Below are positions 348-45,092 of a stretch of 64,000 nucleotides of DNA, one piece after another. Each line of letters opens with the position of its first letter. Positions within the stretch are counted from its first letter, which is position 1. Both the position numbers and the translations under genes were made by a program. The notes beneath the pieces are model-generated. The model did not search any database. It saw only the letters and a list, made by a program, of their open reading frames with translations, and was not told the DNA's origin. This stretch comes from a virus, in the IMG/VR virus record IMGVR_UViG_3300042514_001858, positions 1-64,000 of that record; one strand, 5' to 3'.

Positions 348-364
348 ATTGTATTCTAGTTTTT
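348..364 (-). promoter_or_regulatory. AAAAACTAG-NN-TACAAT promoter motif
   Basis: AAAAACTAG AA TACAAT, 6 nt, ATG(341). Confidence 0.75.
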
Positions 365-638
365 AATTGCGTTCTTCTCTAAGTTCGTAGCGCAAATCTT
401 GTAATTTATCTTCAAGTTCAAAGACTTGTTGAGCAAGTGCGGTATTAGCATAACGAAGAACTTCAATGTCTTTTGGCAAGCATGGCAACCCTTCTGCGAG
501 CTTGTCTGCATATGCTGAGAGTTCATTGTAGTCTTCATAGCTTACCCATTCACCAGAGCTATCTGCCTCCATTTCGGCGGAGAAGCAATCAAATTTGCAT
601 TCGCGTAGAATTGGGGTGTATGTTTGGATTTTTTCCAT
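363..638 (-). CDS. hypothetical phage protein (C-terminal coiled coil)
   Basis: 91-aa ORF in co-oriented array. Confidence 0.65.
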   Translation of the reverse strand: MEKIQTYTPILRECKFDCFSAEMEADSSGEWVSYEDYNELSAYADKLAEGLPCLPKDIEVLRYANTALAQQVFELEDKLQDLRYELREERN

Positions 639-668
639 ATTTTATTTTTTAAAATCGATTAAAATTAA

Positions 669-851
669 TTCGCTTCGGAACGGTCTGCGCCAACCTTTTC
701 AGTATCCGAGTTTGAGGAGGATGGAATTTATGCCTGTCATTACTGACTTTTTCCGCGCACCCGAAGGCTCCATTTCTCGATCCCACCAGTCTCCGTGCTA
801 AGTTAATAGTAGAGGGAGGTTCTGGTCATGTATTGATACTGCCGAAGCGAA
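669..851 (-). ncRNA. candidate structured non-coding RNA (~183 nt, unknown family)
   Basis: Perfect 10-bp terminal helix (669-678/842-851), 7-bp helix (700-706/835-841), further short helices, C(UUCG)G and GUAA (GNRA) tetraloops on the minus strand; visibly GC-richer than flanks; no minus-strand ORF. Confidence 0.6.
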
Positions 852-857
852 AAATCG

Positions 858-1025
858 TTATTTGGAATGGTTACGTTGATTACCTTTGCGGCTTCTGTGT
901 TTGCTCTCAGGGGCATCCCATCGAGTGTCACAAGCTTTGCCCTCAAAAATACGAGTGCCATTGTTGTTTTGATCTTTCTTGCTTGCGAATCCCGCAGCTT
1001 TAGCTTGTCGTGTGTTTTTGTTCAT
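858..1025 (-). CDS. small basic protein (55 aa)
   Basis: Own translation MNKNTRQAKAAGFASKKDQNNNGTRIFEGKACDTRWDAPESKHRSRKGNQRNHSK; below the ORF-track cutoff; co-oriented with neighbours. Confidence 0.6.
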   Translation of the reverse strand: MNKNTRQAKAAGFASKKDQNNNGTRIFEGKACDTRWDAPESKHRSRKGNQRNHSK

Positions 1026-1075
1026 TTTGTTTTGTATTTTTATTTGTTTTGTGTTTTTATTTGCTAAATATTATT

Positions 1076-1822
1076 ATGATTAAAGTATATGATACGTTTG
1101 AGAAAAAATCAATAGTCATGAATGATCCTTATGAATTTTTGAAAGAATATGGTTATTATAATTATAAAAATAGAAAAACTATATTTTTCTTCGCCACTAG
1201 AACCAAATATTGTTTGCATAGATTTATCAAAGAAGATTTTATTCATAAAATGTTTATCATGTATTGTATTGATGATGGTAGAGAGTATCACGGTGTTTCG
1301 TCTAATGGTTTTTTAATCCAAATTGGTGAGGAATGTTCGAGGTCTAATATTCATGAAATTAATAGAATTAGGTGTGGTGTTAGAACTACAATATCATTTT
1401 CGCAAAAAACATATTGTCTCAAAAAGAATAAAGATTCGATAAACAATCTCATGATAAGTAAGTATAAAGATTCTCATTTATATAGAACAAAATCAAAAGA
1501 TGTAAAAATACAAAGAAAAATTTCAAACTTACTTCGAGATAGAATAAGGTGTGCAATGAAGAGGAGTATCGCCAAGAAATCGGAGAAAACAATGGATTTG
1601 ATCGGTTGTTCGATTTCATTTTTAATGAATTATCTGGAAGAAAAGTTTCAAGAAGGTATGACTTGGGATAATCAGGGTAAATGGCATATTGATCATATTG
1701 TTCCATGTGCCTCTTTTAATTTATCAAATCCAGAAGAACAGAAAGTATGTTTCCACTACACCAACTTACAGCCTTTATGGGCGTTGGATAATATGCGAAA
1801 GGGTTCTAAAATTTTGAAATGA
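1076..1822 (+). CDS. HNH homing endonuclease
   Basis: WHIDHIVP...HYTNLQPLWALDNMRKG HNH motif; antisense to neighbours; start moved to ATG 1076, 5 nt after TAAATA. Confidence 0.8.
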   Translation: MIKVYDTFEKKSIVMNDPYEFLKEYGYYNYKNRKTIFFFATRTKYCLHRFIKEDFIHKMFIMYCIDDGREYHGVSSNGFLIQIGEECSRSNIHEINRIRCGVRTTISFSQKTYCLKKNKDSINNLMISKYKDSHLYRTKSKDVKIQRKISNLLRDRIRCAMKRSIAKKSEKTMDLIGCSISFLMNYLEEKFQEGMTWDNQGKWHIDHIVPCASFNLSNPEEQKVCFHYTNLQPLWALDNMRKGSKILK

Positions 1823-2099: not shown

Positions 2100-2684
2100 C
2101 TAGTTTTTAATATCTCGGATGATAAGTTCACAATTTTTAACGTTGGGAATTGTATCGAAGTCTTCCACACTCACGTTGTCAATGATCATCAGCATTGTCT
2201 TGATAAATTCACCATGAGACACGATAACAGCAGTGTCAGCAGTGTCAGCCGCTTGAGTCTTCAACCAATTCAGAAAGATGAATGCTCTCTGATGGCAATC
2301 AGCGAATGATTCCCCACCATCAGGACGACGATAGAAGTCAAACAGGTGTTTGCGTTCTTCTCTATTTTTACAGGCTTCATATTCATTTCGAAGATTACCC
2401 CACTCACGTTCGCGAATCAAGACATGCTCTTCTTTATAAAATGGAATATAGAGAGGAAAGTGTGTATTGATAATTTTCATTGTCTCTTTTGCTCGCACAT
2501 AAGGACTATGAATCAATAAAAATTCACTTGATGAGAGAAGCTCTGCACGAATCTCTTGCCCAACTTTATTTGCTTGCTCTTTACCCTTTTCTGTTAGAGG
2601 AACAGACCAATCAGGCATTTTGAAATACACTGACTTGTTGATATTACCCTCTGACTGACCATGGCGTGTGATTAATAATTTCAT
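2100..2684 (-). CDS. histidine phosphatase (phosphoglycerate mutase-like) family protein
   Basis: RHGQSEGN, SPYVRAKET, GES and VSHG motifs. Confidence 0.9.
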   Translation of the reverse strand: MKLLITRHGQSEGNINKSVYFKMPDWSVPLTEKGKEQANKVGQEIRAELLSSSEFLLIHSPYVRAKETMKIINTHFPLYIPFYKEEHVLIREREWGNLRNEYEACKNREERKHLFDFYRRPDGGESFADCHQRAFIFLNWLKTQAADTADTAVIVSHGEFIKTMLMIIDNVSVEDFDTIPNVKNCELIIRDIKN

Positions 2685-3691
2685 AATTGTGAGATTTTAT
2701 TTTGAAACCATCTGGCTATTTTTTTAGAACAAGCAGCACCAAATTCTTTTCGGGAAATATCCGAAGCTCTAATAGAATCGCCTTCCTCTTCCCAACAATC
2801 TTCAATTACCAAACGCACAAAATCTCCGATCTTTTGAGGAACTTTATCGGCTTCTGCCAGAACGATTTTATCGTAAATTTGTTGTAATCTATCTTCATGA
2901 CAATGAGTATCGACAGCTTCTTGGATAGAGTCTAATTTTTGAACGTCAACCGTAGGGAGCTTTTTAATTTTGGAAATGGTGTGTTTCTCATCTTTTGTTT
3001 TAAATGCTGACGAATACCCGAAAGTGTTTGAAATGCGCCACACCAATCCTTCTCCTACTCCAGATACCCCAAATTCTTTTGCAAATGGACACTCATTTCC
3101 AATTTCCGTTGTCCATTGCGTCATTTGTTCAATAGCCTTATCAGGACGATTCAAATCAATATCAATTTCATATTTATGATAATCATCGATATTATACACA
3201 TGGATAGAATGATCTCGAATACCAGAAGAATCTAGCCATTGTGTGGTGTCATCTTCGAGAACTACTTTAAGACCGAAAATAACAAATCTTTTGGTCAATT
3301 GATTCAGAGCAACCCCTTTTTGGATAGAACCGCCACACCATTCACCGAACAAAATCACATATTTCACATTGTCTTGGAAATATGTTTTGATTCGATCCCA
3401 AATACCTTTTCCATCTTTGTTCACCCAATGAGCGAATCCAGCATTATCTTGAATCTCGCTAATAATATTTTCTCTTGATTGACAATAGAAAGAACCTTCT
3501 CGACTAAAAACAATGGCAGCATTAGTACCATGTAGCTTAACTCGTCCTTCAAATTTAATAATATGCCAAGTATCAGGCTCTTTATAGATTGGTTCGTCGT
3601 TCTCGTCTTGCCCAACATAGGAAATTTGTAATTTAATATCACGGAGAACTTGATGATATTGTTTAATTTTTGGGAATGTATAGTGTTTCAT
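2681..3691 (-). CDS. RNA ligase, Rnl2-like family
   Basis: Motif I KLHGTNA, FGEWCG, GEGLVW, FKTK nucleotidyltransferase motifs. Confidence 0.8.
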   Translation of the reverse strand: MKHYTFPKIKQYHQVLRDIKLQISYVGQDENDEPIYKEPDTWHIIKFEGRVKLHGTNAAIVFSREGSFYCQSRENIISEIQDNAGFAHWVNKDGKGIWDRIKTYFQDNVKYVILFGEWCGGSIQKGVALNQLTKRFVIFGLKVVLEDDTTQWLDSSGIRDHSIHVYNIDDYHKYEIDIDLNRPDKAIEQMTQWTTEIGNECPFAKEFGVSGVGEGLVWRISNTFGYSSAFKTKDEKHTISKIKKLPTVDVQKLDSIQEAVDTHCHEDRLQQIYDKIVLAEADKVPQKIGDFVRLVIEDCWEEEGDSIRASDISRKEFGAACSKKIARWFQNKISQL

Positions 3692-11117: not shown

Positions 11118-12212
11118 TTAATTTTTGTGTTCCAATTCTAAGATTTTCTCCATTGCTTTGCGCACGATTTTATCATCAATGTCACGCTTGTCAAGCAAAA
11201 TAAATGCAATCGGAGTCTTCCAATCGCGAAACTCTTCCTGAATCGCCATTGCTTGTTCTTTGCGAGTTTCATAATTCCGAATAAAAGGAATTCGCTCATT
11301 CATATTATCTACACACTTTACGAATTTAGTATAGGCATCGGTAATCAATTTAGCCTCGTCTTTGATTTTCTCTGCTACTTCGAAGTCGATGTGATTGACA
11401 GTATAGTTATAAAAATCTTGATAATCAATGAATCTTGGAGATTCTAAAAAGAATTCTAAAACATGAGAAGTGCTACGCAATCCAGTTGCCAATCGGTGAA
11501 CAGAACAATACCAACTGCCCTTTGCCTTGCGCATTTTTCCAGATTCAGAGTATAAAACAACACCCTCTTTACCTACCCACATTTCAACATCTTCAAGACA
11601 TTCTTGAATAGAGTCGTAGGAATATTTTGCAGGTCTGTCGATTTCAAGAGTGATAGCCAACTGATCTAAATATTCTTGTGTCGCCATCCATCCAGAATCT
11701 TTTTTAATTATTCCAATCAAAGACAATTTCGGTTCGGGAAAACCACCAATAACAATCACATTGCTATTAGTTTGCCACTCACATAAAAATGTAAATTCAG
11801 AATTACTCTCAACGTCTTTGATAAATTCAAAAAACTTTTTATATTTTTTGATTAAAAAATCAATCTCATGACCATTAGGCATTTGTCTCGCATCTGCTGT
11901 GCCTCTAGTTCTGTGCAATAGATTGCCCTTGTATTGATCACAAATAAGCAAGCTACCATCTAATTTCTCGTAAGCGACAAAAGGTTCATCCAGAGGAAAT
12001 TTATCCAAATCTGGCTGCTCCGTATAATTGAAAAACTTTGAGAACGAACGCGATACGATAAAATTATCAGAGACGCGAACGATCATCGAACGAAATTTCA
12101 TTGTATCTTCCGTCCACTTCACTCCGATTTCTTTCGGCGTAATGAGCCAACATTCGTCACCAGCGATGACGCAATCTTTGTAATTAAATTCTTCTTTGTC
12201 TGGTAGTTTCAT
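11118..12212 (-). CDS. RNA ligase, T4 Rnl1-like
   Basis: SRSFSKFFN, EKLDGSL (motif I), EGVV, KAK; start trimmed to MKLPDK. Confidence 0.85.
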   Translation of the reverse strand: MKLPDKEEFNYKDCVIAGDECWLITPKEIGVKWTEDTMKFRSMIVRVSDNFIVSRSFSKFFNYTEQPDLDKFPLDEPFVAYEKLDGSLLICDQYKGNLLHRTRGTADARQMPNGHEIDFLIKKYKKFFEFIKDVESNSEFTFLCEWQTNSNVIVIGGFPEPKLSLIGIIKKDSGWMATQEYLDQLAITLEIDRPAKYSYDSIQECLEDVEMWVGKEGVVLYSESGKMRKAKGSWYCSVHRLATGLRSTSHVLEFFLESPRFIDYQDFYNYTVNHIDFEVAEKIKDEAKLITDAYTKFVKCVDNMNERIPFIRNYETRKEQAMAIQEEFRDWKTPIAFILLDKRDIDDKIVRKAMEKILELEHKN

Positions 12213-12213
12213 A

Positions 12214-12606
12214 TTAATAGCTGACTTTTCCAAGTCGATCTTCAATTGATTTGCCGCGAGTTTTTCCGTTGATTAAAACGAACTTCTTTTTATTTTTACC
12301 ATACCAACGCTCCTCATCTTCTTTTGTTTGCAAACATTGATTCGGCAATTCCCACTGTCTATCTTTTAATCTTTCTTTTATAACCTCTTCGATTTGAATC
12401 TGCGCCTCTTCAGGGATTTCCCATTTTTGGTTACGCTCCTTCCAAGCCATCTCGATACTCCAACGAATAAAGTCCTCTGATTCTTTGACAAACTCTTGTT
12501 CGCAAAGTTGAATATTCATCCAATCATCAACATACCCATTCCACATTTTGATTTCGGGATTGCCTTTGATTTTTTGAAGCTGTTCAATTAATTGATTTTT
12601 TTTCAT
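12214..12606 (-). CDS. hypothetical protein
   Basis: 130-aa ORF. Confidence 0.7.
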   Translation of the reverse strand: MKKNQLIEQLQKIKGNPEIKMWNGYVDDWMNIQLCEQEFVKESEDFIRWSIEMAWKERNQKWEIPEEAQIQIEEVIKERLKDRQWELPNQCLQTKEDEERWYGKNKKKFVLINGKTRGKSIEDRLGKVSY

Positions 12607-42251: not shown

Positions 42252-45092
42252 TTAGCCAAAATACTTATTCATAGCATCCCATTGCTCATAAGAAATATTC
42301 CTATCAGGATTTGAATTTATGGAACCTTCAGGTAAGAACCATCCCTGTGCTTCTAAATCTGCCATGTCACTAGCTGCCATGGAACCTTCCCCACCAAAAA
42401 GCATTGGTGCTAAGTTGGAATGTTCAATTTTAGCAACTTCTTCGTTAGTGTAAATAGATGTGGATGATTTGTATTTGAATAGTCCTTGATCAATGGGTTT
42501 GATCACCAATGGTTTGTCACAATCATCATATTCGTCAATTTCAAAATACAATTCTGTGATATCTTTATAAAGAGCCATCAATGCCCACACAAATGCCATA
42601 ACTCTATCATCGTGTTCCCCACTTTTTGCTTTCCAAGAGCCATTGGGGTATCGCACAAAATTTTTAAATTCTTTCAGGGTATCTATATTACGGAATGTTA
42701 CTGATTGTGCTTCATTGACGAAGTATCTCTGGTTCTCCACCGCTTTGTATTTGGTGTTGATATGGGAAATCATACCATTTTGTTTGTTCTTATGAGCTTC
42801 TTTTGCACCCCAAGATACCAGATTTTGATACATGTGAGTGTTTGCCAGAGTATCACAAACACCTGTTCCTTGGTTATTACGCTCAATTAATAATAGAGGA
42901 TTTCCCCAATTTCCACAAACATCTACCACTTCATTGGTAAATTCTGATGGTCCTTTTTTATTTGTCCAATATTCCGCAACTTGTATGATTTGCTTTGGAT
43001 TTGTCACATCCAAAACTTGCAATACAGATGCATCTATACCAACACCTTCAGAAACGTCTCCACCAATCACATAGATTTTTTCAGAATCGTATTCTTCCCA
43101 TATTTTATAAGCACCTTCTTTTAGAACATGGATCGGTTGTTTGCATTCATTCCTAAGTCTATCAAATAGGGATTCATCAATCGATTGTTGACTATTATCA
43201 AGGAAAACATTTCCAAATTCCTGCATGAAAGCTTCATATGATCCCAGAGCTTTAATTTGTTGTAATTTCCAAGCTTCATCTCTTCCAGGTATTTCATCCC
43301 ACTCAATTTTATGGGGAGTGAATCCATTTTCACCTTTTTCAGCTTCAGTATAAAGCTTGTGGAATAGGTTTCCCACTTGATTGGGTGTGGATGCCGCAAT
43401 AATCTTAGATGTTCGGGAACGAGAAATTGTGGGGTAAACAGACTTCCAAAATTCATCAACAACATGTTCCTCCAAGAATGCCAACTCGTCCAAAATGAGC
43501 AGATTCAAAGCAGTTCCACGGATCGCTGATCCCGTTGTAGTTGAGATGCTGATACGACTACCATTATCAAATGCACATCCTGTTTTACCATATTCCTCAA
43601 CTCCTGGCTTTAACCAATTTGGTAACTCCTCATAAGCCAAACGAATTCTTCGAAATATCTCAATCGCAGTGGATTCTTTGTTTGCTACAATAATGGTGTT
43701 TCTGTATGGTTTAAAACATGCTTCGTGGAGAGCAGCAATGGTCATCATTGTAGTATTATGGGTTGGGATAAATGACTTACCACACAGGAACAAATTATCA
43801 CTTGAATCCACAGTAATACATCTAACTGGAACCGATTCAATCGGTCTTATATCTTTAATATAGTGCCATTGATTTCTTTTATTTGATTCTGGTTCTTGAA
43901 TATTTTGTAATACAATTCTATTCTTTTTAAAATTCAATTTTACAACATATTCTCTAGGATAAAATTCAATACTGTGGGAATCCGCACATTGTTTCCCATT
44001 TAAAAATGTTTTTCTTACTTTATAGGTGGTTTTATACCCCAAACTCTCAACCAATTCTTTGAATTGATTTACTAAATTTTCATTTTTATTGGTAAATTTG
44101 GCATGACCACGAGTGTTGATACTCCCATCACTATCCATCAAACCTTTTAACAATTCCAATCTTTGCTCTCTGGATGATTCCAGATAATCTTTGGGTATAT
44201 ACTTATTTCCCAATAAATTTAAATTTCTTAAATCGTTGTTTAACGATGCTCGATAACCGATTTTATCCCATTTACCGTCTATTTTTCCCAGATTGACAGA
44301 ATAAATGTTTCTATTTTCTCTATATACTTCAGAATATTTATATCTTTCATATTGTGATAATATTTCTCTCAATTCATTAATATATTGATACCCAACTGTA
44401 ATTCGAGAAGAATCTGTCGATCCATCTCCCAACCACATTCCCAATACATAAGGTGGGATTGTCAAATCCTTTTCTTCCTTCTCTACTCCATTTATACAAG
44501 ACGGGATTCTGTAAAAAGGTTCTCCAGATTTTGTTTTAAAATTTTCAATTAATTCTTTAGTTGTTTTAATGCTTCCACTTGAAACAACTTTTAAATCCCT
44601 ATCTCTTTTTGATTGGACAAACCAATTATGATCTTCATCAGCTACAATAACTTCACCATTATCAAATTCAACTTCGTAACACGGTCTATCATATCTAATG
44701 TTATGCGCCATGGCAATATTGCAAGGTTTACCATCTCTCCCATAGACCACATCACCATCTTTGAGTTCTCCCATTGTTGTCCAACCATTTGGTGTAGGTA
44801 TTGGAGTATCAAGAGCCAATGCCTTAGAAGCTTGACGGGGGCTAAGAATTACGTTAAATCGATTATCAAAAACGCCTTTTAAAATTCTTTTTTGGAAATC
44901 ATAAAGTTGGATATTAACCTTACCAACATCACTATCAGGATCGATTATATAAAAATAATTAGCTGCAAAATGAATAATATCATTCCTACACTTTTCAATT
45001 TCAACCACCATCTCTGGTGTATATTCAAACGCTGAATTTGCGCTGGGTAAATTAGTATTACCCATATAATTTTGTTTCTTTTTAGCAGCCAT
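42252..45092 (-). CDS. gp17: terminase large subunit, intein-containing
   Basis: YMGNTNL, PRQASK|TT Walker A, LILDELAF Walker B, STPN, FMQEF, GGDVSEGVGID, HDDRVMA. Confidence 0.95.
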   Translation of the reverse strand: MAAKKKQNYMGNTNLPSANSAFEYTPEMVVEIEKCRNDIIHFAANYFYIIDPDSDVGKVNIQLYDFQKRILKGVFDNRFNVILSPRQASKALALDTPIPTPNGWTTMGELKDGDVVYGRDGKPCNIAMAHNIRYDRPCYEVEFDNGEVIVADEDHNWFVQSKRDRDLKVVSSGSIKTTKELIENFKTKSGEPFYRIPSCINGVEKEEKDLTIPPYVLGMWLGDGSTDSSRITVGYQYINELREILSQYERYKYSEVYRENRNIYSVNLGKIDGKWDKIGYRASLNNDLRNLNLLGNKYIPKDYLESSREQRLELLKGLMDSDGSINTRGHAKFTNKNENLVNQFKELVESLGYKTTYKVRKTFLNGKQCADSHSIEFYPREYVVKLNFKKNRIVLQNIQEPESNKRNQWHYIKDIRPIESVPVRCITVDSSDNLFLCGKSFIPTHNTTMMTIAALHEACFKPYRNTIIVANKESTAIEIFRRIRLAYEELPNWLKPGVEEYGKTGCAFDNGSRISISTTTGSAIRGTALNLLILDELAFLEEHVVDEFWKSVYPTISRSRTSKIIAASTPNQVGNLFHKLYTEAEKGENGFTPHKIEWDEIPGRDEAWKLQQIKALGSYEAFMQEFGNVFLDNSQQSIDESLFDRLRNECKQPIHVLKEGAYKIWEEYDSEKIYVIGGDVSEGVGIDASVLQVLDVTNPKQIIQVAEYWTNKKGPSEFTNEVVDVCGNWGNPLLLIERNNQGTGVCDTLANTHMYQNLVSWGAKEAHKNKQNGMISHINTKYKAVENQRYFVNEAQSVTFRNIDTLKEFKNFVRYPNGSWKAKSGEHDDRVMAFVWALMALYKDITELYFEIDEYDDCDKPLVIKPIDQGLFKYKSSTSIYTNEEVAKIEHSNLAPMLFGGEGSMAASDMADLEAQGWFLPEGSINSNPDRNISYEQWDAMNKYFG
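43755..44822 (-). mobile_element. class 3 (Ala1, WCT) intein with LAGLIDADG endonuclease in terminase (356 aa)
   Basis: Starts ALALDT; block B DEDHNW; LGMWLGDG and LKGLMDSDG; block F VRCITV; ends PTHN before Thr. Confidence 0.9.

Follow-up and report, generated by a model that had tools for sequence, protein, structure and literature searches.

What is encoded in the GC-rich stretch at one end of this lake phage genome, and what becomes of the RNA that is read from it? The DNA analysed here, referred to as the window, is a stretch of 64,000 nucleotides corresponding to the first 64 kb of a 154-kb IMG/VR record that is ~75% complete, and its source virus is a myovirus, with genes for a tail sheath, a baseplate wedge and a large terminase. 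An initial annotation, made from the letters of the sequence, had placed a multi-helix RNA at 669-851 of the minus strand, and the sequence reads exactly so, with all the helices listed (183 nt, from 851 to 669). The described difference in composition is also real, the GC content being 0.47-0.51 in the region of the element and ~0.35 around it. The gap between genes is smaller than had been noted, a small, conserved ORF of 55 aa filling most of it.

A new structured RNA of freshwater myoviruses

Homologous loci were collected by searches with flanking proteins, which gave 6, 20 and 19 loci, and more were obtained with two DNA patterns. Related lake myoviruses hold 21 distinct full-length copies of the element, which make up the alignment used below (A3), and two natural deletion variants. 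The nucleotide identity of the element among homologues is 87-100%, against 72-92% for the 55-aa protein next to it and 45-65% for the Rnl1-like ligase, the last value being that of the most distant carriers. A covariance model (R1) built from 19 of the 21 copies detected exactly one copy per genome in the genome of the window and in five related genomes, three of these six being complete (148-207 kb, with terminal repeats) and three incomplete. The element is a single-copy core gene in a clade of ~150-207 kb freshwater myoviruses. A distant blastn search of INPHARED phages found no homologue, nor did the two patterns in 185,579 prokaryote genomes, where they gave two matches only, which we consider chance because the covariance model was negative on both. 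In the distant relative L125, a GC-rich stretch past the homologue of the 55-aa ORF showed no significant fold.

Covariation among homologues and a scan of Rfam had been proposed as checks of the initial annotation. No Rfam 15 family (riboswitches, ribozymes, introns, sRNAs, Y RNA/YrlA, GOLLD and ROOL included) matched at gathering score anywhere in the window or, even at E≤10, over window positions 500-1100 in linear genomic order, and the element is, as had been stated, no recognised riboswitch. That it is not a tRNA was borne out by ARAGORN, which found no tRNA or tmRNA in the window. We also considered a Y RNA or YrlA and discarded it, there being no TROVE (Ro/Rsr) protein in the 154-kb contig (~75% complete) and no Rfam match. 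The parts of the element are the following.

842..851, minus strand: 5′ strand of P1, the closing helix (UUCGCUUCGG), paired with 669-678 in 21 of 21 copies
835..841, minus strand: 5′ strand of P2 (CAGUAUC), stacked on P1 and paired with 700-706
785..826, minus strand: P3 arm (ACCAG/CUGGU, CUCC/GGAG and a 3-bp tip helix), with four covarying pairs
707..784, minus strand: inner domain, with GGGAUCGAGA and AAACUCG invariant, UGGA/UCCA, the UUCG segment and the GNRA hairpin
700..706, minus strand: 3′ strand of P2 (GAUACUG), with covariation in A3
682..695, minus strand: P8 hairpin (GGUU-GGCGCA-GACC), whose loop is self-complementary
669..678, minus strand: 3′ strand of P1 (CCGAAGCGAA), followed by a U-rich tract

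Across the 21 sequences of A3, the proposed pairs are formed in 99.5% of cells, compared with 28-46% when the partners are slid, and double (compensatory) changes occur at 11 pairs, a number reached by none of 500 shuffles. G-U pairs are found at four positions, including P2 in 13 of the 21 sequences, and correspond to mismatches on the opposite strand; they thus fix the minus strand as that of the RNA, which has the orientation of the neighbouring genes. Taken singly, the sequence has an unexceptional folding energy (z = -1.5 on the minus strand and -1.4 on the plus strand), and the case for the structure therefore rests on the comparison of homologues. Because these are close (at least 87% identity), covariation is limited, and more than one pairing model fits parts of the inner domain. 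With the absence of an Rfam match and the covariation, the proposal of a new phage non-coding RNA holds, and we are confident that it represents a real, new family of structured RNA.

P1, of 10 bp, shows a compensatory flip from U-A to A-U and grows to 12 bp in L223 and L212. P2 has two covarying pairs (C-G to A-U and U-A to C-G). In the P3 arm, ACCAG/CUGGU changes from A-U to G-C in 8 sequences, CUCC/GGAG has two covarying pairs and an additional 3-bp helix at the tip of the ACCAG arm also covaries, the apical loop being nearly invariant. Within the inner domain, the (A)UGGA/UCCA(U) helix changes from G-C to A-U in 4 sequences, and the GNRA hairpin GUCA-GUAA-UGAC at 736-747 changes from C-G to U-A and its loop from GUAA to GCAA, with the GNRA form kept. 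The P8 stem covaries too, from GGU/ACC to GUUG/CAAC in L212. All these helices except the tip of P3 had been proposed from the single sequence. Two others, CGAG/CUCG and CC(UUCG)GG, do not vary in any copy, and RNAalifold prefers GGGA/UCCY and GCCU/AGGC in their place, the data fitting both alternatives equally. The two deletion variants, L122 and L025, show a modular fold. In L122 (132 nt), the module from GGGAUCGAG to AAACUCG is missing, most of the inner domain is absent and the tip of P3 is swapped for a different sequence; L025 (53 nt) consists of P1, a capped P2 and P8 only, the whole inner domain being missing.

RNA contigs join the two ends of the element

Six RNA runs hold part of an 801-nt query stretch, and the contigs of four of them (X18, X19, X20 and X21) were aligned. 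In X18 (river, 2018), a 222-nt contig runs from 749 to 671, continues with 8 letters and proceeds from 854 to 720. Its first 30 nt are identical to its last 30 nt, so that 222 nt correspond to a cycle of 192 nt plus 30 (k-1, with k = 31), and this cycle closes cleanly, without a branch. X20 (lake, 2025, a different study) adds one joint of 855 to 671 and another of 852 to 667, in two sequence variants. X19 holds a 170-nt contig with 7 unaligned end letters and no clear joint, and X21 has contigs in genomic order only. The contigs of X18, X19 and X20 cover ~667-855 of the stretch, and the missing cover of the flanks was not counted as evidence. In X20, many short RNA contigs are also piled on an A-rich part of the window (1025-1062), their loose ends being poly-T; they probably derive from other organisms and match through low complexity. 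Two short tails lie outside P1.

852..855, minus strand: short 5′ tail, part of the putative circular form (joints 854/671, 855/671 and 852/667)
657..668, minus strand: U-rich 3′ tail (UUAAUUUUAAUC), which is AAUUUUUAAUC or CCUUUUUAAU in relatives

In the sense of the RNA, the junction of variant 1 reads ...GCGGA-AUUAAUUUU-UUCGC... and that of variant 2 reads ...GCGAA-UUU|CU-UUCGC..., the latter composed of the variant's own 3′ tail (UUU, from AAUUUUUAAUC) and its own 5′ tail (CU, from AAAAG|CUUUCGC). The junction letters come from the U-rich tail, the 3′ end lies inside the first U run after P1 in both variants, and its position depends on the variant (3 nt versus 6-9 nt past P1). A pattern for any such junction gave no match in 2.9 million IMG/VR contigs, and no tandem copies of the element were seen at ~30 genomic loci. 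As a single-copy DNA gene cannot yield a head-to-tail RNA by transcription, the ends would be joined after transcription. The terminal helix that juxtaposes them is P1, with its invariable pairing, compensatory flip and extension. Three assembled contigs from two RNA runs, which cannot give the share of circular molecules, make it likely that the RNA is circular in vivo.

The strongest competing explanation is that of a stable, linear, processed small RNA, derived from a 3′-UTR or from a transcript of its own and protected by its paired ends and terminator, the junction contigs being artefacts of cDNA or library preparation. P1 and the U run do look like a terminator, and clear joints were present in only two of the four RNA runs. 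False back-junctions are known to arise when reverse transcriptase switches template at the 5′ end of abundant small RNAs, and this process, or ligation during library preparation, could be the source of the joints. Against it, the junction was recovered in two studies seven years apart and in two sequence variants, each with its own junction letters, the cycle in X18 is clean and unbranched, and at depths of 12-90 an artefact junction, being rare, would usually not reach the threshold for assembly. We regard a linear RNA as rather unlikely.

RNA ligase genes lie upstream of the RNA

Which activity might join the ends? Three genes of the window encode candidate enzymes of RNA end joining or healing.

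2681..3691, minus strand: RNA ligase (PF09414, Rnl2-like), candidate sealing enzyme
2100..2684, minus strand: histidine phosphatase (PF00300, E = 2e-25), possible end-healing enzyme, overlapping the stop of the ligase gene
11118..12245, minus strand: second RNA ligase (PF09511, T4 Rnl1-like), whose homologue is nearer the RNA in the second gene order

The RNA is found in two gene orders. The first one consists of an ATPase, the PF09414 ligase, the histidine phosphatase, a 65-aa ORF, tRNA genes or a homing endonuclease, the 55-aa ORF and the RNA. The histidine phosphatase gene is syntenic in relatives, and the PF09414 ligase, which exists in two forms (336-aa Rnl2-like, or 466-aa with a PHA02142 OB domain), is upstream of the RNA wherever the locus of relatives with this order reaches that far. 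In the second order, the RNA lies 0.8-1.8 kb downstream of the PF09511 ligase, on the same strand. Taking both together, 0.3-1.8 kb separate the RNA from a PF09414 or PF09511 ligase gene upstream of it, and since the two orders come from related phages they amount to at most two independent observations. This gene neighbourhood leads us to suggest, tentatively, that the RNA may be sealed by a phage ligase. ATP-dependent RNA ligases need 5′-phosphate and 3′-OH ends. Judging from the chemistry of the enzyme families, such ligase-ready ends, held in place by P1, would result from termination at the 3′ side and endonucleolytic cleavage at the 5′ side. PF09414 presumably also covers the Rnl3 enzymes MthRnl and Pab1020. 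MthRnl, an archaeal relative of the PF09414 ligases, makes RNA circles in vitro (PMC2577357), and archaea express circular isoforms of structured RNAs (PMC12558985).

A self-processing ribozyme, which would cut itself out and join its own ends with no ligase, either by a group I-like attack of a 3′-OH or in the manner of VS and hairpin satellite RNAs, would be the boldest reading of this RNA. Its size and complexity would fit, with two multi-helix junctions, a GNRA loop and a possible kissing loop, as would the long invariant unpaired stretches (GGGAUCGAGA, AAACUCG, UGAAAAGGU and CGUUCC), which are typical of catalytic cores, and the defined 5′ end downstream of an ORF, without an obvious enzyme site. 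We nevertheless judge it improbable, given that no Rfam ribozyme or intron matches even at E≤10, that the terminal G of group I circles is absent, that the 53-nt L025 keeps P1, capped P2 and P8 without the whole supposed core, and that the adjoining ligase genes offer a simpler route.

Several known kinds of circular or permuted RNA were considered and rejected. A permuted tRNA was discarded after ARAGORN found no tRNA or tmRNA on the doubled 192-nt circle. In the case of a group I intron, there is no Intron_gpI match, the junction ends in U and not in G, the element follows a stop codon and a joint that skips it was not seen in the RNA contigs. A viroid-like or retrozyme RNA lacks support from Rfam ribozymes (hammerhead, twister, hairpin, HDV, pistol and hatchet, none of which matches), and inspection of the junction revealed no hammerhead core motifs. 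A template for rolling-circle reverse transcription was rejected with no reverse transcriptase in the genome, and rolling-circle translation with stop codons in every frame of the circle. A 65-codon ORF that spans the RNA in L176 (3923-4120, plus strand) and L223, with its ATG within P1, is interrupted in the window and in L212 and is for this reason probably due to chance.

The ligase-RNA region also seems to be a hotspot for homing endonucleases. A low-GC ORF (0.21-0.29) at 1010-1822 of the window, on the plus strand and with its start likely near 1117, matches phrog_1035 'endonuclease VII' (HNH-type homing endonuclease); it stands among minus-strand genes, at a place where relatives have tRNA-Ser/tRNA-Cys or nothing, and has the appearance of an inserted, free-standing homing endonuclease gene. 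A copy with 73% identity occupies the same place in L111. In the second gene order, a GIY-YIG/NUMOD3 homing endonuclease is found just upstream of the Rnl1-like ligase (L176, 532-1350, plus strand).

The RNA is a gene in its own right at the end of a short transcription unit

The gene that most often precedes the RNA is the small ORF that fills the gap.

858..1025, minus strand: conserved basic ORF of 55 aa, no known family, ending 6 nt before the element

This ORF was found at 20 IMG/VR loci and 19 metagenome loci, and its product has 21 invariant residues (AGFASKKDQNNNG...CDT.W). The protein has no Pfam or PDB match even at E≤10, and Atlas gave nothing above chance; a resemblance to the ribosome-associated protein Sra/bS22 finds no support in these searches. 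The ORF is present in all six genomes examined, in two copies in one of them, and lies 13-18 kb away from the RNA in two, a distance that weakens the protein as an obligate partner of the RNA. Conversely, the element is absent beside several homologues of the ORF (L117-121, L123 and L026). Directly upstream of the element, most relatives have the 55-aa ORF, L212 has another small ORF, and in L223 a promoter-like motif, AAAAACTAGAATACAAT, ends 12 nt before P1 with no ORF between. This variable upstream side, the ORF homologues without the element and the ORF located 13-18 kb off together indicate that the RNA is a gene in its own right. The same motif recurs before genes at ~345-365 and ~127-150 of the window and at ~2955-2975 in L009-L016, ~6-8 nt before the ATG. 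In relatives, tRNA gene clusters lie directly upstream of the unit formed by the ORF and the RNA (L009/L010, 2788-2954; L022, 2087-2485; L021, 220-466; L025, 2845-2920); ARAGORN found no tRNA in the whole contig of the window (~75% complete).

The element always ends a short transcription unit. A U run follows P1 in all copies, starting 5 nt past the stem in the variant of the window, and the U-rich tail at 657..668 is the likely end of the transcript. In terms of a GC-rich stem followed by a U run, P1 (10-12 bp) and the U tract resemble a terminator, but the 'loop' is 160 nt of conserved structure. Could the element then be no more than an elaborate terminator, or a 3′ structure that stabilises the mRNA of the 55-aa ORF, with no function of its own? 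Its place in most relatives, between the ORF stop codon, which it follows directly, and a U run, and the short form in L025, would agree with such a role. Nonetheless, in other genomes the RNA is preceded just by a promoter motif or by small ORFs of a different kind, the ORF homologues just mentioned do without it and 160 nt of conserved, covarying interior far exceed what a terminator needs, which makes this explanation very improbable. As for a riboswitch or attenuator in the leader of 363..638, the cis-regulatory role contemplated in the initial annotation, that ORF does begin 30 nt past the element in the window, but its 91-aa homologue is 0.4-1.3 kb further off or absent in relatives, where other genes follow, often with their own promoter motif past the element, and a downstream gene that varies while the element stays fixed to its upstream side rules out this function for practical purposes.

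The P8 loop is self-complementary

The loop of P8 contains a palindrome of at least 4 nt in 10 of its 11 distinct versions, 6 of which have a 6-nt palindrome, and one loop has none. The palindromes include GCGC, UGCGCA, CGUACG and UACGUA, usually with purine flanks, and shuffled loops were as palindromic as those observed ~2 times in 10,000. Since switching from one palindrome to another needs several coordinated changes, these replacements indicate selection for self-pairing, that is, for a kissing dimer. Judged from the loop sequences, P8 probably lets two RNA molecules pair through a kissing interaction. An intramolecular pseudoknot between UGCGC, past the UUCG segment, and GCGCA of the P8 loop fits most copies and fails in L110 and L212; it was dropped in favour of self-pairing because the palindrome persists in variants that lack the partner segment. 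In this respect, P8 resembles the DIS of HIV-1, with a 9-nt loop, a 6-nt GC-rich palindrome and purine flanks (AG-UGCGCA-G and AG-CGUACG-A in P8), and a palindrome kept through coordinated changes. It differs from the DIS in its stem, which has just 3-4 bp and lies inside a three-way junction, and in its palindrome, which is no longer than 4 nt in some variants and missing from one.

How a phage might make a circular RNA

How would such a molecule be produced? In most relatives, minus-strand transcription would generate it as the 3′ end of a short mRNA of the 55-aa ORF, and in one lineage (L223) it would start at the RNA's own copy of the phage promoter motif. The transcript would stop in the U run past the closing stem, and the 5′ end would need a processing step. 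P1, with its 10-12 bp, would bring the 5′ and 3′ ends side by side, and their covalent joining, most likely by one of the phage's own ATP-dependent RNA ligases, would give a circle of ~190 nt in which P1 is capped by a loop of 5-9 nt made of the two short tails. The predicted circle is a three-way junction of the P1 hairpin, the P8 hairpin and P2, and P2 would bear two further arms, one of them tipped by the GNRA tetraloop. The explanation that we favour, with modest confidence, is a stable circular RNA whose ends are kept in contact by P1 and sealed by a phage ligase.

What might the RNA do? As a circle offers no ends to exonucleases, high stability is expected of the RNA. The genes around it, for RNA ligases, end-healing enzymes and tRNAs, suggest a role in a conflict of RNA cleavage and repair, and our best guess is a stable, protein-binding RNA that acts as a decoy or sponge in it. 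The full scenario, in which a dsDNA phage uses its own repair ligases or a new ribozyme to make a closed, self-associating circular RNA that serves as decoy or sponge against an RNA-targeting defence of the host, is put forward as a speculative possibility.

Eukaryotes, archaea and viroid-like replicons are well-known sources of circular RNAs. In a limited literature search, we came across no bacterial DNA virus described as making a circular RNA that is genome-encoded and non-intronic. If the proposal is true, phage RNA ligases would gain a biosynthetic substrate, and with it a second role beyond the repair of cleaved tRNA; the RNA would offer a compact, natural self-closing scaffold of ~190 nt, with natural minimal versions of 53 nt and 132 nt; and what a nuclease-proof structured RNA does during infection would become a testable question. 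Should circularity turn out to be an artefact, the element would still be a new, covariation-supported RNA family and a core gene of abundant lake phages.

The closest parallels are the archaeal non-coding RNAs circularised by Rnl3 (C/D-box sRNAs and omega-RNA isoforms; Pab1020, MthRnl), which, as proposed for the phage RNA, are structured non-coding RNAs with a terminal stem that brings together the ends to be joined into a circle, and whose enzyme, like the candidate here, presumably belongs to the ATP-dependent RNA ligase family PF09414. Unlike them, the phage RNA is encoded by a bacterial dsDNA virus, a role of the ligase is suggested by the gene neighbourhood, and neither C/D-box RNAs nor omega-RNAs resemble it in sequence or structure. 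With viroids, retrozymes, satellites and tricRNAs (PMC4536317) it would share a small structured circle (~190 nt), probably closed by a ligase of the repair or tRNA type. The differences from this group are that it is DNA-encoded, single-copy, neither a replicon nor an intron, and without a known self-cleaving ribozyme or a splicing-endonuclease motif.

Among phage RNAs, GOLLD, ROOL and the T4 stable RNAs C and D have self-association features. They resemble the present RNA in being phage-encoded, often beside tRNA clusters, and ornately folded, and self-association is suggested here as well. The RNA described here is much smaller than GOLLD and ROOL and has no Rfam match to either, and we know of no report of a circular form for these two or for T4 RNAs C and D. 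The pRNA of phi29 is likewise a phage RNA of ~170 nt with a three-way junction, paired 5′ and 3′ ends and loops for intermolecular pairing. Unlike it, the present RNA belongs to terminase-packaging myoviruses, pRNA being found in small podoviruses with protein-primed genomes, and there is no sequence or Rfam similarity between the two. As for the terminase of the window, the large-subunit ORF (42252-45092, minus strand) is 946 aa long, the part for the ATPase and that for the nuclease align with separate stretches of the PHROG profiles, and it may carry an insertion such as an intein.
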